This document shows positions 5,322-53,561 of a DNA stretch of 64,000 bases, in pieces. A program made the translations under genes and the position numbers. The notes beneath the pieces are model-generated. The model was given only the letters and a program-made list of their open reading frames with translations. It was not told the origin of the DNA and searched no databases. Location of the stretch: positions 18 to 64,017 of the forward strand of contig JBNKCG010000081.1 in NCBI GenBank assembly GCA_050287605.1. Direction: 5' to 3'. This stretch comes from Gammaproteobacteria bacterium. GTDB lineage: Bacteria; Pseudomonadota; Gammaproteobacteria; QQUJ01. Each line of letters starts with the position of its first letter. Within the stretch, counting starts at the first letter, position 1.

Positions 5322-6001
5322 CAGCCGTCCTGCACACCCGCCTTGCCGCGAAACAGGTACCCCTGTCCGCGGCGGGTCTCGATGATCTCGTCGCCGAACT
5401 TCTGGCGCAGGCGTTTGATATAGACCTCGACCACGTTGCTGTCGGGTTCGGTATCGCCCTCGTAGACGTGTTCGGTGAGGCGGCTCTTGGAGAGCACCCG
5501 ATCGGGATGGAGCATGAAATAGCGCAACAGGCGAAACTCGAAACCGGTCAGCGTTTCGGAAGCGCCGCCCACGACTGCCGCCTGCTGGCGCTCCTCGTCG
5601 AGGCGGATGCCACCGACTTGCAGGCACGGATCGGCGCGACCGTGGCGGCGGCGCATCACCGCCTGGAGACGGGCCAGCAGCTCCTCGTTGTGAAACGGCT
5701 TGCCCAGGTAGTCGTCGGCCCCTGCCTTGAGACCGTCGACGCGTTCGTGCCAGGCGTCCCGGGCGGTCAGAACCACCACCGGCAGGTCGTTGCCCTGGTC
5801 GCGCCAGCGGCGCAATACCTCCAGGCCGGGGCGGTCCGGCAGCCCCAGATCGAGAATCGCCGCGTCGAACGGCTCCTCTTCGCCGAGAAACTGGGCATCG
5901 ATACCGTTGTCGGCCACGTCTACCGCGTAGCCGGCCTGTTCCAACGCCGGTTTTAGCCGGCGAACCAGCAGCTCATCGTCTTCCACCAGCAGCAGTCGCA
6001 T
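5321..6001 (-). CDS. OmpR-family response regulator (receiver domain plus winged-helix DNA-binding domain)
   Basis: MRLLLVEDDELL…DLGLPDRPG…VVVLTARD receiver domain. C-terminal winged helix (EFRLLRYFMLHP…VYIKRLRQKF). Confidence 0.85.
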   Translation of the reverse strand: MRLLLVEDDELLVRRLKPALEQAGYAVDVADNGIDAQFLGEEEPFDAAILDLGLPDRPGLEVLRRWRDQGNDLPVVVLTARDAWHERVDGLKAGADDYLGKPFHNEELLARLQAVMRRRHGRADPCLQVGGIRLDEERQQAAVVGGASETLTGFEFRLLRYFMLHPDRVLSKSRLTEHVYEGDTEPDSNVVEVYIKRLRQKFGDEIIETRRGQGYLFRGKAGVQDG

Positions 6002-9115: not shown

Positions 9116-10125
9116 TGCGAACTCCCTTCGCCCTCGTCCGCCAGCGCCGGGTCGCGCGGCGCCTGGATCAGCAGCCGGTCATCGGGCTGCGCCAGATGCG
9201 GCGCGATGAGAAAGTTCTTCTGCGACGCGCGCAGGGTGCGATCGGCCTCGTAGAGGACGTTGCGACCCTCCTGCACGATGCCCGCCAGTTGCGGCGTCGC
9301 CGCGCGCAGCTGCCCCGAGACCGTCTTCAGATCGTCGAGGATCTGGGCGATGTCCACCGCATGGGCGGGAAATTCCCGGGTGCTGCTCTCCAGGCGCTCC
9401 AGCGTGACGGCGACGCTGCCGAGGATGCGATTGAGTTCGCTCTGGGTCTGGATGACGCGCTGGACCACCTCGGCGCTGTTGCTGGTGATCTGCTCCAGGT
9501 TGGCGAGACTGCGGTGGAATTCGTCTTCCGTGCGCAGCAGCGAACCCGACAGCTTCGCGAACTGCGCGAGGCTTTGGTTGAAGCTGGCCAAACCGCTTTG
9601 CAGGTCGCCCTGCGGGTCCAGGAGCCGCGAGGACAATTCGGCGTGATTGGCGAGAATCTTGTCGATCTGCTCCAGGCGCTGCGGCAGGTTGGCCATCAGA
9701 TCGGGCAGCCCGCTGGTCTGGATCAGCGGCAGCTCACCATTCTCGGCGATGGCGGGTTGGTCCGATGCGCCGATGGCGATGTCGATATAGGGATTGCCGA
9801 ACGGAGGATTGATGAGGGTGGCGCGCGAATCCTCGCGGATCTTGTCGCGGTAGCGTTCCTCGATCTCCATCACCACGCGGATCTGGTTGTCGGAGGTGAT
9901 ATCCAGCGCCTTCACGCTGCCGACGGAGATGCCCGCCAGGGTCACCGGCGTGCCAACGCGAATGGTGTCGGCCCGGCTCACCACGGCGTGGACGGAGAAA
10001 CGGTGTGCGAACGGAATGGCCTGCCCGCGCAGCTGGTAGACCAGATAGAACAGCGCCAGGAGGGTGAGCAGGATCAACAGCCCCACCAGGCGCTTCTGAT
10101 TGACCTGCGCAGCGGATGAACTCAT
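9112..10125 (-). CDS. MCE-family (MlaD-like) substrate-binding protein with a long C-terminal helical extension
   Basis: N-terminal TM segment and an MCE domain (VGTPVTLAGISVGSVKALDI…). The start MSSSAAQ at 10125 is ATGA-coupled to the ATPase stop. Confidence 0.8.
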   Translation of the reverse strand: MSSSAAQVNQKRLVGLLILLTLLALFYLVYQLRGQAIPFAHRFSVHAVVSRADTIRVGTPVTLAGISVGSVKALDITSDNQIRVVMEIEERYRDKIREDSRATLINPPFGNPYIDIAIGASDQPAIAENGELPLIQTSGLPDLMANLPQRLEQIDKILANHAELSSRLLDPQGDLQSGLASFNQSLAQFAKLSGSLLRTEDEFHRSLANLEQITSNSAEVVQRVIQTQSELNRILGSVAVTLERLESSTREFPAHAVDIAQILDDLKTVSGQLRAATPQLAGIVQEGRNVLYEADRTLRASQKNFLIAPHLAQPDDRLLIQAPRDPALADEGEGSSH

Positions 10126-16995: not shown

Positions 16996-18162
16996 TCAGA
17001 TGGTGCGGACGCTCAGCACGCCCTCGATGGCGCTGATCTCGGTCACCGTGGTCTCGGGAATCGCGCTCGCCACATCCACCACAGTGTAGGCGAGGTCGCC
17101 GCGCGACTTGTTGAGCATATCGACGATGTTGAGCCCCGCCTTGGCGAGATCGGTGGAGATCTGCCCCAGCATGTTGGGCACGTTGGCGTTGACCACCGTG
17201 AGTCGGTAGTTCCCGTTGTCGCGCGGCATCACCACTTCGGGGAAGTTGACCGAGTTGGTGACGTTGCCGTTCTCAAGGTACTCGCGCACCTGATCGGCCA
17301 CCATGATGGCGCAGTTGTCCTCCGCCTCCACCGTCGAAGCGCCCAGGTGCGGCAGCGTGATGACGCGCGGATGTTGCTTGAGCAGGTTGGAAGGAAAATC
17401 GCAAACGTAACTGTAGACCTTGCCCTCGTCGATGGCATCGACCACCGCCTGGTTGTCGAGAATGCCGTCGCGCGAGAAGTTGAGCAGTACCACACCCTTC
17501 TTCATCAGCTTCAACCGGTCGGCATTGATCATGCCGCGCGTGGCGTCTATCAACGGCACGTGGAACGTGACGAAGTCGCTACGCGCCAACAAATCGTCCA
17601 CGCTGGTTGCCTGCTTGACCTGCGACGAGAGTTGCCAGGCGCGCTGCACGGTGATGTCGGGGTCGTAGCCGATCACGTTCATGCCCAGCGCCAGTGCCGC
17701 ATTGGCCACCTTGACGCCGATGGCCCCCAGACCGATGACGCCCAAGGTGCGGCCGGGCAGTTCGAAGCCGACGAAGTTCTTCTTGCCCGCTTCGGTAGCC
17801 TTGCTGATGGCGGCGTTGTCGCCCTCCAGTTCGCGTGCGAAGTGCCAACCCTGAGCGATGTTGCGGCACCCCAGCAGCATGCCGGCGATCACCAGCTCCT
17901 TCACCGCGTTGGCGTTGGCGCCGGGGGCGTTGAACACCGGGATGCCCTTGGCGCTCATCTTGTCCACCGGGATGTTGTTGACCCCCGCACCGGCGCGGCC
18001 CACGGCCTTCAGCGATGGCGGAATCTCCATGTCGTGCATCTTGAACGAGCGCAGCAGGATGGCGTCGGGATGTTGGATTTCGGAGGCAATCTCGTAGGAA
18101 TCGCGCGGCAAACGCTCCAATCCAGCAACTGAAATATTGTTTAGCGTCAATATCTTATACAT
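16996..18162 (-). CDS. serA: D-3-phosphoglycerate dehydrogenase with C-terminal ACT domain
   Basis: NAD-binding motif GVIGLGAIG. Catalytic His/Glu region. ACT domain at the C-terminus. An AT-rich promoter-like region lies immediately upstream. Confidence 0.9.
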   Translation of the reverse strand: MYKILTLNNISVAGLERLPRDSYEIASEIQHPDAILLRSFKMHDMEIPPSLKAVGRAGAGVNNIPVDKMSAKGIPVFNAPGANANAVKELVIAGMLLGCRNIAQGWHFARELEGDNAAISKATEAGKKNFVGFELPGRTLGVIGLGAIGVKVANAALALGMNVIGYDPDITVQRAWQLSSQVKQATSVDDLLARSDFVTFHVPLIDATRGMINADRLKLMKKGVVLLNFSRDGILDNQAVVDAIDEGKVYSYVCDFPSNLLKQHPRVITLPHLGASTVEAEDNCAIMVADQVREYLENGNVTNSVNFPEVVMPRDNGNYRLTVVNANVPNMLGQISTDLAKAGLNIVDMLNKSRGDLAYTVVDVASAIPETTVTEISAIEGVLSVRTI

Positions 18163-18195
18163 TTTATTTAAACCTATCTGTTATCTATTGCCAAA

Positions 18196-18250
18196 CGCGA
18201 AAATCGCCAAGACGACGGCCTCTGCCTGTCGCACCTTGGCGATTTTGCGC
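18196..18250 (-). terminator. Long hairpin (CGCGAAAATCGCCAAG … CTTGGCGATTTTGCGCG) between serC and serA. Likely a serC terminator or attenuator.
   Basis: 16-bp near-perfect inverted repeat with a 22-nt loop. Followed on the minus strand by TTTGG. Confidence 0.5.
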
Positions 18251-33297: not shown

Positions 33298-33448
33298 GTT
33301 CACATCATGGACCATGATGGCGTATCCGGCCTGTCCGATGGGGTGCCAGTGCCGGGAGTGCGGTGGCCGACGCGGCGCCGGCTCCGACGCAATAAACAAC
33401 TCTAATAATATCTTCTATCTTATTGTTATTTATTGCTTTACAGTAAGT

Positions 33449-34114
33449 TTAAACCCCATATTTCCGGCACTTCACGCTGAGCGCGCAATCGGCACAGTGG
33501 GGGCGCGACCGGCAGGCAACTTTGGCGTGCCGGACGATCAGGGCATGGTACTGATTGAAGCGCGGGATGTCGGGCCCCAGGGTCTGCTCGAAGTGGTGGC
33601 GCAACGACTCGTAGCCGGCGTGGGCGTCCAGCAGTCCCAGGCGCGAGAAGATCCGACGCGTGTAAGCGTCGATGACGAAGACCGGGCGCTGGAAGGCGTA
33701 GAGCAGGATCGCATCGGCGGTCTCCGGCCCGATGCCTTTGACGCCCAACAACCCGGCGCGCAGCCGATCCGTGGACCAGCGACACAGACTCGTCAGCCCG
33801 CCCTGATCGAGCAACCACTCGCAGAAGTGCACTAGACGCTCGGCTTTGACGTTGAAATAGCCGGAGGGACGCAGGCATTGCGCTAGGGCATCGCGCTCCA
33901 CCGTAACGACGGCCTGTGGCGTCAGCCAGCCCGCTTGTTTCAGGTTGGCGATGGCCTGTTCGACGTTCGTCCACGCCGTGTTCTGCGTCAGTATGGCGCC
34001 CACCATCACTTCAAAAGGAGTCTCACCCGGCCACCAGTGTTGGGGACCGTAAGCAGCGTCGAGCAAGTGGTAGACGTGATGAAACGGTGTTTGCGGCGGG
34101 GCGCCGCGGCTCAC
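33449..34114 (-). CDS. Endonuclease III-related HhH-GPD protein (COG2231-like)
   Basis: HhH-GPD motif ([20 protein letters not shown]) and a C-terminal Cys cluster ([12 protein letters not shown]). Confidence 0.75.
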
Positions 34115-34998
34115 CGCTTGCGGCCCTTCCAGGGGCTCTTATCCGCGGTAGCGCGCTTCCCCGACCCGCGCCGCGTCGGTCCGGCGCGTTGGGATCCCTC
34201 CGCCGGCTTGCGCGGCGCGCTCTTCTCCGTGGTACGCCGCGGCGGCTTCAACGCCGCCAGCCCCGCCGCTTCGCGCAAGCGGTTGATCTCACCCGGGTTG
34301 AGTTCGCACCAGCGCCCCTGGCGCAATGCGCTGGGCAGCGCGTAGGGCCCGAAGCGCACCCGCATCAAGCGGCTCACCTGCAGCCCCTGGCTCTCCCACA
34401 GACGGCGTACCTCGCGTTTTCTTCCCTCAACGATCAGGACGTAGTACCAGTGGTTGGTCCCGCGGCCGCCACCGTCGGTGATCTCCTCGAAGCGCGCCGG
34501 TCCGTCTTCCAGCTGGACACCCTGCGTCATGTTGACCAGTGCCTGCTCGGGTACTGCACCGTGCACGCGCACCGCATACTCGCGCTCCACGCGCCGCGAC
34601 GGGTGCATCAGGGCATTGGCCAGTTCGCCATCGGTAGTAAAGAGCAGCAGCCCTGAGGTGTTGAGGTCGAGCCGTCCGATGGCGATCCAGCGGCCAACCG
34701 TCAACGGCGGCAGCCGTTGAAAAACCGTGGCGCGCTGCTCGGGGTCGTCGCGCGTGACCAGTTCACCTTCCGGTTTGTGGTAGGCGATGACCCGCTTCGG
34801 CACCTCCGCCAACCGCTTGTCCGCCACGCGCCGCCCGTCGACCTCGATGCGTTCGGCGCCCGTCACGCGATCACCCAACTGCGCCGGATGCCCGTCCACG
34901 CTGACCCGCCCCGCCTTGATCCACTCCTCGATCTCGCGCCGCGAACCGAGACCGGCGCGGGCTAATACCTTGTGAAGTTTTTCAGTGTCGTCGGTCAT
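34111..34998 (-). CDS. rluB: 23S rRNA pseudouridine synthase (RluB)
   Basis: S4 domain followed by the RsuA/RluB catalytic motif ([18 protein letters not shown]). Basic C-terminal tail. Confidence 0.85.
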
Positions 34999-35017
34999 AG
35001 GGAAGAAAATGATCTTT

Positions 35018-35157
35018 AACCACAAAGTACACAAAGTTCACGAAGTTAAACCCTTAAAAACTGAGCCTAAACCGTCATGCTGGGCTTGATCCGTCATGAC
35101 GACAAGAAGGGTTTCCGCAAATAGATCTTACTTTGTGTACTTCGTGTACTTTGTGGT
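35018..35157. repeat. AT-rich structured inverted-repeat element (MITE-like or REP-like) between rluB and scpB
   Basis: Outer arms each carry three tandem 9-bp units (CACAAAGTA, CACAAAGTT, CACGAAGTT versus TACTTTGTG, TACTTCGTG, TACTTTGTG). Inner inverted repeat AAACCCTT/AAGGGTTT. Core has CCGTCATG twice and a GTCATGAC palindrome. GC content is far below the surrounding DNA. Confidence 0.55.
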
Positions 35158-35167
35158 GAAAAGGAAG

Positions 35168-35860
35168 CTAAAAAGCTGTTGATTCCGACGTCGAAGTTTC
35201 GTCCGGTTCGACTTCCGTGCCGGCCTCCACCGCCTGATCATCCGCGATCGCCTCGACAGGCTCCTCAATCTCGGCAGCCTCGTAATCCCCGCCCGCCTGT
35301 GGCTCCTCGAACAGCAACTCGGCGTTGATGCTGTCGATGTCGCGGATCTCGGCCAACGTGGGCAGTTCGTTGAGGTTCTTGAGGTTGAAGTAGTCGAGGA
35401 ATTGGCGGGTGGTGCCGTACATGGCCGGCCGGCCGGGCACGTCGCGATGACCCAGCACGCGTACCCATTCGCGCTCCAACAGCGCCTTCATGATGTTAGT
35501 GCTGACGCTTACACCGCGAATCTCCTCGATCTCACCGCGGGTGATAGGCTGGCGGTAGGCGACCAGCGCTAGCGTCTCGAGCAGAGCGCGCGAGTAGCGC
35601 GGCGGGCGCTCCTCCCACAGCCGCGACACCCACTCGCTGTACTCGGCACGGGTTTGGACACGAAATCCGCTGGCGGTCTCCTTGAGTTCGATGCCGCGTC
35701 CTTCATACTCCGCGGCCAGTTCCTTCAACACCTCGCGCAGCGCATCGCGCGTCGGCTGTTCCGTTTCAGGAAACAGGTTGAGCAGGTTGTCGAGGCTGAG
35801 CGCCTCGCCCGCGGCGAGCAGGGCCGCTTCGACGATGTTCTTCAGTGCCTTTGCGTCCAT
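35168..35860 (-). CDS. scpB: Segregation and condensation protein B
   Basis: Winged-helix ScpB domains. Acidic C-terminal tail. Confidence 0.85.
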   Translation of the reverse strand: MDAKALKNIVEAALLAAGEALSLDNLLNLFPETEQPTRDALREVLKELAAEYEGRGIELKETASGFRVQTRAEYSEWVSRLWEERPPRYSRALLETLALVAYRQPITRGEIEEIRGVSVSTNIMKALLEREWVRVLGHRDVPGRPAMYGTTRQFLDYFNLKNLNELPTLAEIRDIDSINAELLFEEPQAGGDYEAAEIEEPVEAIADDQAVEAGTEVEPDETSTSESTAF

Positions 35861-35874
35861 CGATGATTACCGTG

Positions 35875-36726
35875 TCAGGAGATTGCCGGTTCCATCCCGT
35901 CACCGTGCGCCGCGCCGCGCACCTTGACGTGAATCGGGCCGTAGGCCTCGGTCTGAATCAGCTCGATCAGCGAGCCTTTGATGAGTTCGAGAACGGCGAG
36001 CAGCGTCACCACGACGCCCAGCCGCCCCTCCTCGGGAGTAAAGAGCGCGGTGAAGTCGGTGAACTGGTCGACGCGCAGCGTGGCCAGCACGTTGGACATG
36101 CGCTCGCGTACCGACAACGCCTCGCGCTGGATGTGGTGGTGGCTGAACATGTCGGCGCGCTGCAACACCTCTTTGAACGCCAGCAGCACCTCCTTGAGCG
36201 TCACCTCCGGCAGCGCTTTCAGCGCACGCCGTTCGGTGATTTCGGCGGTGCCCACAAACAGATCGCGGCCGACGCGGTGCAGCGAATCGATGTCCTCGCC
36301 GGCCTGCTTGTAGCGCTCGTACTCCTGCAGACGGCGGATCAGCTCGGCGCGCGGGTCGTCTTCGTTTTCGTCGTCGGAGGGCGGACGCGGCAGCAGCATA
36401 CGCGATTTGATCTCCGCCAGCATCGCCGCCATCACCAGGTATTCGCCGGCCAGTTCGAGTTTCATCTCCTGCATCAAGTCGATGTACTCCATGTACTGGC
36501 GGGTGATCTCGGCGATGGGGATGTTGAGGATGTCCAGGTTCTGGCGCCGGATCATGTACAGCAGCAGGTCCAGCGGCCCCTCGAAGGCCTCGAGAAACAC
36601 ACGCAGCGCATCGGGCGGGATATAGAGGTCGCGCGGCAGTTCGGTGACCTTTTCGCCCAGCACCAGGGCGATGGGCATCTCGGTCTGCTGCGGCGGCTGC
36701 GCCTCCAGGATTTCCTCTTCGCTCAT
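35875..36726 (-). CDS. scpA: Segregation and condensation protein A
   Basis: ScpA kleisin family. About 283 aa. Confidence 0.85.
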   Translation of the reverse strand: MSEEEILEAQPPQQTEMPIALVLGEKVTELPRDLYIPPDALRVFLEAFEGPLDLLLYMIRRQNLDILNIPIAEITRQYMEYIDLMQEMKLELAGEYLVMAAMLAEIKSRMLLPRPPSDDENEDDPRAELIRRLQEYERYKQAGEDIDSLHRVGRDLFVGTAEITERRALKALPEVTLKEVLLAFKEVLQRADMFSHHHIQREALSVRERMSNVLATLRVDQFTDFTALFTPEEGRLGVVVTLLAVLELIKGSLIELIQTEAYGPIHVKVRGAAHGDGMEPAIS

Positions 36727-36766: not shown

Positions 36767-38038
36767 TCAACGGTAGTTCAGCCCCATCGCCTTACGCACC
36801 TCGTCCATGGTTTCGCGGGCGACGTCGCGCGCCTCCTCGCAACCCTCGGCGATAATGTTGCGCACCAGCGACGGCTGCTCTTCGAACTCCTTGGCGCGCT
36901 CACGGATGGGCCGCAGCTCTTTCTGGATGGCATCGATCACCAACGCCTTGCAGTCCAGGCAGCCGATGCCGGCCGTGGTGCAACCTTCGCGCACCCACTG
37001 CTTGTGCTCGTCGTCGGTGTATACCTGGTGCAGCTGCCATACCGGGCACAGCTCGGGCGTGCCGGGATCGTCGCGCCGCACGCGGGCGGGATCGGTGGGC
37101 ATGGTGCGCAGCTTCTGCTCCACCGCCTCCGGTGCCTCGCGCAGGGAGATGGTGTTGTTGTAGCTCTTCGACATCTTCTGCCCGTCCAGCCCCGGCATCT
37201 TCGACGCGGGCGTAAGCAGCGCCTGGGGTTCGGGCAGGATAATCTTACCGCCGCCCTCCAGGTAGCCCTGCAGGCGTTCCAGGTCCGCGATGCTGATGTT
37301 CTGCTGGCTCTCCAGCAGGGCGCGCGCCACGTCCAACGCCTCCTGATCGCCCTGCTCCTGGTAGCGCTTGCGCAGGTCGGCGTAAAGCTTGGCGTTCTTC
37401 TTGCCCATCTTCTTGGCGGCGGCTTCGGCCTTCTCCTCGAAGCCCTGCTCGCGGCCGTAGAGATGGTTGAAGCGCCGCGCCACCTCGCGGGTCAGCTCCA
37501 CGTGCGCCACCTGATCCTCGCCCACCGGCACCATGCCGGCTCGGTAGATCAGGATGTCGGCAGACTGCAGCAGCGGATAGCCGAGGAAGCCATAGGTGGC
37601 CAGATCGCGTTCCTTGAGCTTCTCCTGCTGGTCCTTGTAGCTGGGCACGCGCTCCAGCCAGCCCAGCGGGGTGACCATGCTCAACAGCACGTGCAGTTCG
37701 GCGTGTTCCATCACCCGTGACTGGATGAACAGTTTGGCGGAGTTGGGGTCGATCCCCGCTGCCAGCCAGTCGATCACCATGTCCCAGACGTTCTCGGAGA
37801 GGATCTCCGGCTCTTCGTAGTGTGTGGTCAGCGCATGCCAATCGGCGATGAAGAAAAAGCACTCGTATTCGTGCTGCAGCTTGAGCCAGTTCTTCAGCAC
37901 GCCGTGGTAGTGCCCCAGGTGCAGCTTGCCGGTGGGGCGCATACCCGAAAGTACGCGTTGGTATTGCGCGGGGATGGTATCCACTTCTCTCCTCTTGACC
38001 TCGTTGGATGATTCGTCGCTGATAAACGTTTCCCGCAC
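36767..38038 (-). CDS. trpS: Tryptophan--tRNA ligase
   Basis: HIGH motif (GKLHLGHY) and KMSKS motif. Confidence 0.9.
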   Translation of the reverse strand: MRETFISDESSNEVKRREVDTIPAQYQRVLSGMRPTGKLHLGHYHGVLKNWLKLQHEYECFFFIADWHALTTHYEEPEILSENVWDMVIDWLAAGIDPNSAKLFIQSRVMEHAELHVLLSMVTPLGWLERVPSYKDQQEKLKERDLATYGFLGYPLLQSADILIYRAGMVPVGEDQVAHVELTREVARRFNHLYGREQGFEEKAEAAAKKMGKKNAKLYADLRKRYQEQGDQEALDVARALLESQQNISIADLERLQGYLEGGGKIILPEPQALLTPASKMPGLDGQKMSKSYNNTISLREAPEAVEQKLRTMPTDPARVRRDDPGTPELCPVWQLHQVYTDDEHKQWVREGCTTAGIGCLDCKALVIDAIQKELRPIRERAKEFEEQPSLVRNIIAEGCEEARDVARETMDEVRKAMGLNYR

Positions 38039-53379: not shown

Positions 53380-53561
53380 AGCGGGTTACGATACCGAAAA
53401 ACTTTCCCTCGCTTCAACGCGGGAAAATAGTTGAAATTTATCGTTTAAGCTTATGTTTTCAATAAACTTATCGGACTCGTCCCTGGACCACGGCGCACCG
53501 CGGGCGTCTGCGCGCCCAGCCAGCCTCATCAACTTGTCATCGTCGGGAGCTGCGGGTATCG

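Follow-up and report, generated by a model that had tools for sequence, protein, structure and literature searches.

We report that the spacer between scpB and rluB in a gammaproteobacterial genome (assembly GCA_050287605.1, contig JBNKCG010000081.1; the 64,000-nucleotide stretch analysed is referred to as the window) holds a 147-bp AT-rich palindrome, at 35015-35161, which on its sequence can be assigned to a family of nonamer-array elements built from the unit CACRAAG plus two variable nucleotides. The family occurs in more than ten phyla, including two archaea-labelled genomes, and in tailed phages. Its closest known kind is that of the repetitive extragenic palindromes (REPs) with the bacterial interspersed mosaic elements (BIMEs) and REPINs, and we give about even weight to the reading that the present copy is a REP/BIME-like interspersed palindrome, which has been kept between scpB and rluB as a hairpin, or leaky terminator, in the intercistronic mRNA. 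The feature is real and well defined, and more interest attaches to the family than to this locus.

REPs and miniature inverted-repeat transposable elements (MITEs) shape operon expression and genome evolution. To our knowledge, the interspersed palindrome families described so far are mostly lineage-specific and come from cultivated Proteobacteria. The present family is distinct in its tandem nonamers, in the recurrence of one unit across many, mostly uncultivated, phyla and tailed phages, and in having neither a REP tag nor a mobilising enzyme found beside it. The puzzle is why one heptamer and one flank should be found in lineages as far apart as Planctomycetota and Gammaproteobacteria, in the two archaea-labelled genomes and in phages; if the family is what it seems, it would point to a sequence-specific factor of very broad host range and provide a ready-made marker of phage-host horizontal exchange. 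For annotation, it explains a class of AT-rich "islands" within housekeeping operons, and the scpB-rluB locus is a testable candidate for uncoupling rluB expression from that of scpB.

Architecture of the scpB-rluB element

The element was delimited by reading the sequence and with a repeat finder. In order, TTTAAC is followed by three CACRAAGNN units, the core of 81 nt, the three units of the inverted array and GTGAAA, which together take up almost all of the 169-nt scpB-rluB spacer. An earlier note, made from the sequence alone, had described a low-GC stretch in a 65% GC setting at 35018-35157; the measured GC content is indeed 0.41-0.45 versus approximately 0.65 in the flanks, and the element lies there, its proper extent being slightly wider. 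Its parts are as follows.

35015..35020: left outer flank TTTAAC, matching the family consensus TTT[A/C]AC and abutting the first unit
35021..35047, plus strand: left arm, three tandem nonamers CACAAAGTA, CACAAAGTT and CACGAAGTT
35048..35128: AT-rich core (loop), 81 nt
35129..35155, minus strand: right arm, made up of the inverted nonamers CACAAAGTA, CACGAAGTA and CACAAAGTA (minus-strand reading)
35156..35161: right outer flank GTGAAA (reverse complement TTTCAC), the second common flank variant of the family

The three inverted 9-bp units per arm are thus as first described, but the arms are not exact complements: the outer inverted repeat (35015-35046 / 35130-35161) spans 32 nt, is 88% complementary and has its halves 83 nt apart. 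The finer features named in the earlier note were all recovered, i.e. the nested repeat AAACCCTT/AAGGGTTT in the core (35048-35055 / 35107-35114), the two copies of CCGTCATG, which are accounted for by a 19-nt tandem duplication (35061-35079 / 35080-35098), and the GTCATGAC palindrome; the core also has an inner stem, CGTCATG...CATGACG. CACRAAGTW occurs six times in the 64-kb window, always within the element, versus 0.69 ± 0.75 times in shuffled sequences, which excludes chance.

The hexamer GATCTT, taken previously to flank both arms, is present in two copies (35012-35017 and 35124-35129), which do not form a symmetric flank but a direct repeat, each lying to the same side of its arm; the closest relative (locus L116) has lost the second of them. 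The shorter GATC occurs three times in this element of about 150 bp (35012-35015, 35089-35092 and 35124-35127); L116 keeps only one of them, and there is accordingly no sign that these sites matter. A small open reading frame (ORF) of 19 amino acids in the core was discarded as it is not conserved in L116.

A nonamer-array family across phyla

Genomes, one per species, were scanned with a one-arm pattern of two units followed by CAC (CACRAAGTNCACRAAGTNCAC), and host names were taken from the record titles. The pattern matched at least 114 loci in very diverse taxa; approximately 60 of these, i.e. over half, from more than ten phyla, have the composite layout of the window element, which runs from an A-rich stretch through TTT[A/C]AC, two to four CAC[G/A]AAGNN units, an AT-rich loop of 4-140 nt and the inverted units to GT[T/G]AAA. 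Chance alone should place an inverted heptamer in about 2% of loci. The counts, neighbours and hosts in this paragraph and the next are those among the matches listed. Where a second array lies at most 150 nt away, the arms face each other 65 times, where about 2 cases are expected by chance, versus 8, 5 and 4 times for the other orientations. Sixty-three elements share, in the outer flanks on both sides, the A-rich-TTT[A/C]AC sequence, which was absent from the search pattern, with A at flank position -2 in 49-50 of 63 flanks. The spacers that hold the elements are short, the distance to the adjoining genes being typically 2-40 nt, and the settings are tandem (28), convergent (10) or divergent (6). 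None of the facing bias, the shared flanks and the short-spacer setting was imposed by the search, and together they speak for a real family.

The neighbours are housekeeping genes such as ispF, dapB-dapA-dapD, leuC/leuD, purE and glyS, and some of these (ispF, dapBAD, purE and similar) are bracketed by two elements. The hosts belong to Planctomycetota (Pirellulales, Phycisphaerales), Chloroflexota (Anaerolineae, Roseiflexaceae), Acidobacteriota (Vicinamibacteria, Terriglobales, Blastocatellia), candidate division FCPU426, Nitrospirae, Verrucomicrobiota, Bacteroidota (Ferruginibacter), Spirochaetia/Spirochaetaceae, and the Alpha-, Beta-, Gamma- and Deltaproteobacteria (Rhodospirillaceae, Rhodocyclaceae, Methylococcaceae, Thiotrichales, Geobacteraceae), while the archaea-labelled hosts are one Methanobacteriota metagenome-assembled genome (MAG) and one Thermoplasmata chromosome. 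The Methylococcaceae include an isolate, Methylobacter psychrophilus.

Some MAGs have several copies within the few hundred kb sampled, e.g. FCPU426 MFD04540.bin.2.61 with at least six on five contigs. What is conserved family-wide is the heptamer CACRAAG and the inverted arrangement; the loops of copies from one genome are unrelated, except in the Methylococcaceae contig L039, where two copies are near-identical, loop included. Arrays are found singly as well as in pairs. Moreover, the same layout occurs with variant units, CACGGAA in Thermoplasmata, CACAGAG in Rikenellaceae and CGCAAAG in Thermoguttaceae. In the Thermoplasmata chromosome (CP070629.1; L061:3590-3790), a 565-nt intergenic region holds four modules of differing units (CTTCGCG, CTTCCGTG, CACGGAA with an 8-nt period, and CTTCGTG), one facing pair having non-complementary arms.

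The place of the window element in this family was assessed with models built from other genomes and phyla. With the flank position weight matrix, the left flank (TCTTTAAC) scores 6.9 bits (top 2e-5 of the window 8-mers) and the right flank 6.3 bits (top 7e-5), both above the 75th percentile of the family. A half-element hidden Markov model (HMM), built from other phyla only, matches 35013-35046 at E = 5e-7 and 35163-35130 at E = 1.5e-6, and nothing else in the window. As in other members, there are at least two tandem units, a facing array (81-nt gap), both flanks and a short spacer. A metagenome scan for the window-specific core AGTAAGATCTATTTGCGGAAA gave 0 matches, and the element has no match among 72,556 plasmids, where the consensus arms gave only chance matches or unrelated sequence; the plasmid matches in Pediococcus lie near record starts in unannotated sequence and may be replicon iterons. 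We found no description of the CACRAAG family, or of the exact two-unit strings, in open-access papers and bioRxiv preprints.

Phage modules

The IMG/VR database was scanned with a pattern of the flank plus two units. This gave 79 loci with 69 arms-facing pairs (69:3), a viral count that is an upper bound, as some matches are coding coincidences common to related phages. The 46-kb contig IMGVR_UViG_3300003358_000002 encodes terminase, major head, head-tail adaptor and tail proteins, as expected of a tailed phage, and has at least ten TTTAAC-CACGAAG modules in both orientations (L179, L198, L209, L219, L236). Together with modules of other units (CGCGGATTA, CACGGATT, CGCTGATTA), these are found in most of its intergenic regions; several abut start codons, and two predicted proteins would start M-(F/I)-N-H-E-G-H-E if the module were translated. 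Some phage copies read GTTTAAC...GTTAAAC.

On AT-rich phage contigs, four copies of CACAAAGTT and, some 60 nt further on, a variable number of AACTTTGTG lie directly downstream of a Prim-Pol/DUF3987 primase-helicase gene. These are probably origin iterons in which the nonamer is shared by coincidence. The arrays concerned are the following.

L126:2535-2680
L129:8852-8990
L124:5873-5989
L144:344-480

Tentatively, and with less than even confidence, we suggest that bacteria, phages and the two archaea-labelled genomes share a class of modular elements in which units of about 9 bp, each with C[A/G]C and a purine-rich tetramer, follow TTT[A/C]AC and usually form head-on pairs, the class being served by a horizontally shared sequence-specific partner. 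The conserved heptamer implies such a partner, which could be a new REP-RAYT-like mobilisation system (RAYT, REP-associated tyrosine transposase) or a family of proteins that bind DNA or RNA, and which phages may carry.

History at the scpB-rluB junction

Junctions in related genomes, all of uncultured Gammaproteobacteria, were compared; percentages are RluB identity to the window protein unless ScpB is stated.

L116, RluB 79%: full element in a 171-nt spacer
L117, RluB 77%: 57-nt spacer with a mini-hairpin of 1+1 units, CACAAAG-N16-CTTTGTG
L118, RluB 71%: relic units adjoining rluB (HMM E = 0.013)
L145, RluB 73%: no units, possibly core relics
L151-L157, ScpB 88%: no units, possibly core relics
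L146, RluB 67%: spacer of 4 nt
L119, L148 and L150: unrelated spacers
L149 (GCA_028277785.1), 9870-9960: GTAG-type REP-like hairpin, tgtaggagcggcgcaagccgcgat ... ttcgcggctttcgccgctcctac, at the scpB-rluB junction

The comparison of filled and empty sites that had been proposed in the earlier note therefore gives filled, reduced and empty junctions. The spacer takes different palindromic repeats in different lineages, and insertions of palindromes are evidently tolerated at this site.

Between the window and L116, the 5' arm and the next 20 nt are identical at 51 of 52 positions and the 3' arm at about 36 of 38 (arms 95-98%), and all six 2-nt unit spacers are nearly unchanged, whereas third-codon identity in rluB is 0.54-0.59. 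The core is approximately 70% identical overall; L116 has the same 17 nt adjoining the right arm on the plus strand (mRNA strand, AAGATCTATTTGCGGAAA), and the middle is about 70% identical. From the excess of arm identity over third-codon identity, the arms, including the 2-nt spacers, are under constraint. The junctions of the relatives show that the element is old at this site and inherited vertically.

Gene setting and folding of the element

The gene order trpS-scpA-scpB-rluB on one strand, as given in the earlier note, agrees with the NCBIfam identities on the minus strand.

36767-38038, minus strand: trpS (NCBIfam)
35875-36726, minus strand: scpA (NCBIfam)
35168..35860, minus strand: scpB, the upstream gene (NCBIfam TIGR00281, 1.9e-39)
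34999..35014, minus strand: 16 nt from the hairpin base to the rluB ATG, mRNA GAUCAUUUUCUUCCCU
34111..34998, minus strand: rluB, the downstream gene (NCBIfam NF007976, 3.2e-101; ATG at 34998-34996)

The element begins 6 nt past the scpB stop codon TAG. The 16-nt stretch ahead of the rluB ATG is U-rich, with no obvious Shine-Dalgarno sequence; the window has AUCAUUUUCUU three nt past the paired base of the stem, and in L116 a U6 follows the hairpin directly.

Folding bore out the long imperfect hairpin foreseen in the earlier note. The mRNA (minus) strand of the window element folds at -58.5 kcal/mol (z = -6.4 versus shuffles) and the plus strand at -55.2 kcal/mol (z = -5.3). For the L116 element the corresponding values are -56.9 (z = -4.2) for sense and -40.1 (z = -1.9) for antisense, a gap of approximately four times the family standard deviation. 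RNAalifold, applied to the window and L116 together, gave 52 pairs with one compensatory change (C-G to U-A), none broken and nine one-sided changes, eight of them G-U wobble exchanges and the ninth G-U to A-U, with pairing preserved in every case. When the 21 substitutions between the two were placed at random in the window element, the sense fold was -42.4 ± 6.9 (p = 0.024), and the p-value of the observed sense-antisense gap was 0.017. The comparison of the window with L116 is thus suggestive, although not conclusive, of an mRNA-strand hairpin that is maintained at this locus.

Comparison with known systems

REPs, BIMEs and REPINs are repetitive extragenic palindromes mobilised by RAYT Y1 transposases. 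Like these, the family consists of short imperfect intergenic palindromes, many of which lie within operons or between genes in convergent orientation. Some hosts have several copies per genome, the pairs are inverted with linkers that vary, as in BIMEs, and there are old vertically inherited copies that decay. Unlike REPs, which are single 20-40-nt stem-loops of lineage-specific sequence, the CACRAAG arms are tandem 9-bp arrays and the unit recurs across phyla, archaea-labelled genomes and phages; nor was a RAYT found beside any family copy (298 flanking ORFs and a scan of loci L001-L157 for HUH motifs). GTAG or CGTC tags define the two REP superfamilies (PMC3733652). The arms of the present element start with CAC and carry neither tag, and since the tag is absent and no RAYT was found we do not file it as a REP. 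The suggestion in the earlier note of a REP- or MITE-type mobile element holds in that this is the kind best supported, by a multi-genome, multi-copy family, but the REP tags and the MITE hallmarks fail, and in this genome, with one copy in 64 kb, mobility is putative.

The HUH/Y-motif scan was run in six frames on the window and L001-L157, the 79 viral loci lying outside it. It found no HUH/Y1 protein in the window and one RAYT-like gene, in a Ferruginibacter MAG (L095, 4900-5960; Y1 HUH gene at 5362-5883, minus strand, Pfam Y1_Tnp E = 2e-4). This gene is flanked by its own CGTC-type REP (GTCGTCGGTGATAACACCGGACGACGGCG), with two nonamer-array elements 2.4-4 kb away; a RAYT link through this gene was rejected, the flanking repeat being a different REP and not a nonamer array.

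Bacterial MITEs (Correia, ERIC, RUP) resemble the family in their size of 60-200 bp, terminal inverted repeats, intergenic position and foldback RNA when transcribed, and differ in that the family has no target-site duplication, no conserved interior and no parent insertion sequence with the same ends that we could find. Specifically, there was no consistent direct repeat beyond the inverted repeat in 62 elements; a TTAA target duplication was considered and rejected, as the frequent TTTCAC...GTGAAA flanks are inverted, not direct. The eukaryotic FB and CACTA/En-Spm elements, which are of kilobase scale and have known transposases and arrayed subterminal transposase-binding motifs, likewise have inverted ends of tandem short repeats around a variable middle, a resemblance of architecture only.

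Integron attC sites, too, are imperfect palindromes (57-141 bp) that directly follow ORFs, and their outer boxes are RYYYAAC...GTTRRRY. The outer TTTAAC...GTTAAA of the family resembles these boxes (CTTTAAC and GTTAAAG in the window each agree at 6 of 7 positions, on opposite strands), whereas the common flank TTTCAC/GTGAAA breaks the AAC/GTT core, attC sites are without tandem nonamers, and the neighbours here are syntenic housekeeping genes rather than cassettes, with no integrase seen.

Arrays of iterons or DnaA boxes share with the family the 9-bp units in two facing arrays, and the phage examples adjoin a primase-helicase gene; here, however, the units are contiguous with a 9-bp period and the copies are scattered through operons, and the invariant T4 of the DnaA box TTATNCACA falls on a variable position of the unit. 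Y1 transposases with a Bac_DnaA_C tail have been reported with GGGG-type terminal repeats (PMC6006769). The T4 mismatch and these GGGG-type repeats led us to reject a DnaA-box or Bac_DnaA_C-tailed Y1 transposase origin. Similarities to parS, LexA, extracytoplasmic-function sigma factor promoters, sigma-54, the omega heptad, integration host factor, the uptake signal sequence and Shine-Dalgarno were also considered, and none fits the unit and its 9-bp period.

Interpretation and alternatives

In the reading that we favour, an ancestor of the present lineage of Gammaproteobacteria would have had a copy of the element enter its scpB-rluB spacer, or arise there, and this copy would then have been inherited vertically, intact in two lineages and decayed or missing in others. 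In the intact lineages it would be transcribed within a trpS-scpA-scpB-rluB mRNA and kept as an imperfect hairpin of about 60 bp, followed by the U-rich stretch, 16 nt ahead of the rluB start codon. Its likeliest action would be that of an intercistronic RNA structure, i.e. a 3'-exonuclease barrier, an RNase III-type processing site or a leaky terminator, and any of these three routes would uncouple the rluB level from that of scpB, as with REP elements in Escherichia coli. REPs are known to act on mRNA 3' ends, with which a 2026 preprint reportedly deals, and this is our model for the proposed local function. The putative RNA effect thus draws on the analogy with REPs and on the strand-specific pattern of substitutions.

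Several observations weigh against this reading. There is one copy of the element in the 64-kb window and none in approximately 100 kb of the relatives, neither a transposase or RAYT beside the copies nor a target-site duplication was found, and a consensus scan for terminators and promoters called none in the element. The closer ScpB relatives L151-L157 (88%) are without the element, which must therefore be dispensable. The RNA-level comparison is one between two intact orthologues, the window and L116, and when the substituted columns were kept and the bases drawn at random the result was not significant (0.44), so that the signal is mostly that substitutions avoid the arms, which would also be expected from constraint at the DNA level. 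Moreover, the family as a whole shows no conservation of register-specific pairing, since mirrored units are no more complementary than non-partners (0.70/0.41/0.39 versus 0.75/0.43/0.35 for 236 unit pairs from 122 distinct composites), and neither the A/G position nor the 2-nt spacers show in-register covariation. Nor is there any strand asymmetry in folding energy (sense versus antisense 15:12 in 28 tandem-context elements, p = 0.28), in G-U versus A-C mismatches (68:66) or in the count of downstream T-tracts (6.25 versus 6.46). On these sequence comparisons the family has the look of a DNA element that is strand-symmetric and either selfish or bound by protein, not that of a structured-RNA family.

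The family-level data would be compatible with a protein-binding array, one of the candidates in the earlier note. In such a DNA-level explanation, the main alternative to our reading, the nonamers are operator- or iteron-like sites, bound cooperatively on the two inverted arrays by a sequence-specific protein, which could be a regulator, a nucleoid protein or the DNA-binding domain of a transposase, and the hairpin is a by-product of symmetry. This would account for the conservation of CACRAAG across phyla without that of the 2-nt spacers and pairing register, for the lack of strand bias relative to transcription, for the Thermoplasmata facing arrays of non-complementary unit types, for arrays that occur singly and for phage arrays that adjoin a primase-helicase gene like origin iterons; the near-identity of the six 2-nt spacers in the window and L116 also fits. 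We nevertheless regard it as somewhat unlikely. No candidate protein was found, with no recurrent neighbouring protein family or transposase among the 298 ORFs flanking family loci, no HUH/Y1 protein in the window, and a different REP at the sole RAYT-like gene; the arms-facing bias (65:8; viral 69:3) with any loop length from 4 to 140 nt fits foldback better than a fixed geometry, the L116 substitutions keep the sense fold and not the antisense fold, and at a 9-bp period consecutive sites do not share one face of the B-DNA helix.

Mobility is the core of another explanation, by which the element is an active non-autonomous transposon of the MITE type, inserted recently and without a host function, its arrays being terminal inverted repeats with transposase-binding sites. 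The several copies per genome in some MAGs and phage contigs, the near-identical pair in contig L039, the many matches at contig ends (which may reflect assembly breaks at repeats), the filled and empty junctions among the relatives and the different, GTAG-type hairpin at the L149 junction are in its favour. We consider it improbable, given flanks that are inverted and not direct with no target-site duplication, loops that are unrelated among the copies of a genome, the lack of a transposase or autonomous element between array pairs 0.3-7 kb apart, and that of a match in the plasmids. In addition, an element common to a lineage with about 40% synonymous divergence, and better conserved than synonymous sites, is the opposite of a recent neutral insertion. 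Less probable still is a cis-regulatory RNA dedicated to rluB (leader or riboswitch-like), as the earlier note had proposed, or an ordinary intrinsic scpB terminator that arose in place. The stable fold (z = -6.4), the U-rich tail with its U6 in L116 and the position 16 nt ahead of the rluB start agree with it. An intrinsic terminator has a G+C-rich stem with a U-tract directly after it; the stem here is long and AT-rich, AUCAUUUUCUU comes after it in the window and U6 in L116, and the terminator scan made no call. Rfam gave no gathering-score match in the window or in eight family loci, and at E ≤ 10 only chance-level ones (E = 6-7); most RluB relatives have an unrelated spacer, or none, at the junction, and as elements of this type adjoin unrelated genes in many phyla the idea is largely refuted by distribution. 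What stands of the earlier proposal is the mRNA hairpin itself, whose maintenance is suggested by L116.

Other repeats and AT-rich stretches

Other AT-rich stretches of the window (33395-33460, 18130-18200 and 53380-53470; GC 0.39-0.47) are without nonamer units and look, by eye, like ordinary spacers.

The matches to the one-arm pattern that fall outside the family include coding repeats, phage iterons, GTCCACAAA arrays and a Bacteroidales-specific element. The GTCCACAAA arrays are tandem, unpaired, of up to 11 units and often at contig ends (L016, L020, L050, L076, L102, L103 and others), and they resemble DnaA boxes of the TTGTCCACA type. Finally, two Bacteroidales MAGs carry a separate conserved repeat, AAAAGTTCACAAAGTTCACAAAGTTCACACATTTTAGAGTAAGGGT, on many contigs (L007, L025, L031, L062, L089, L091, L099, L113), and most of its copies are adjoined by a small hairpin, aaatcccaccgctttcgcgatgggattt.

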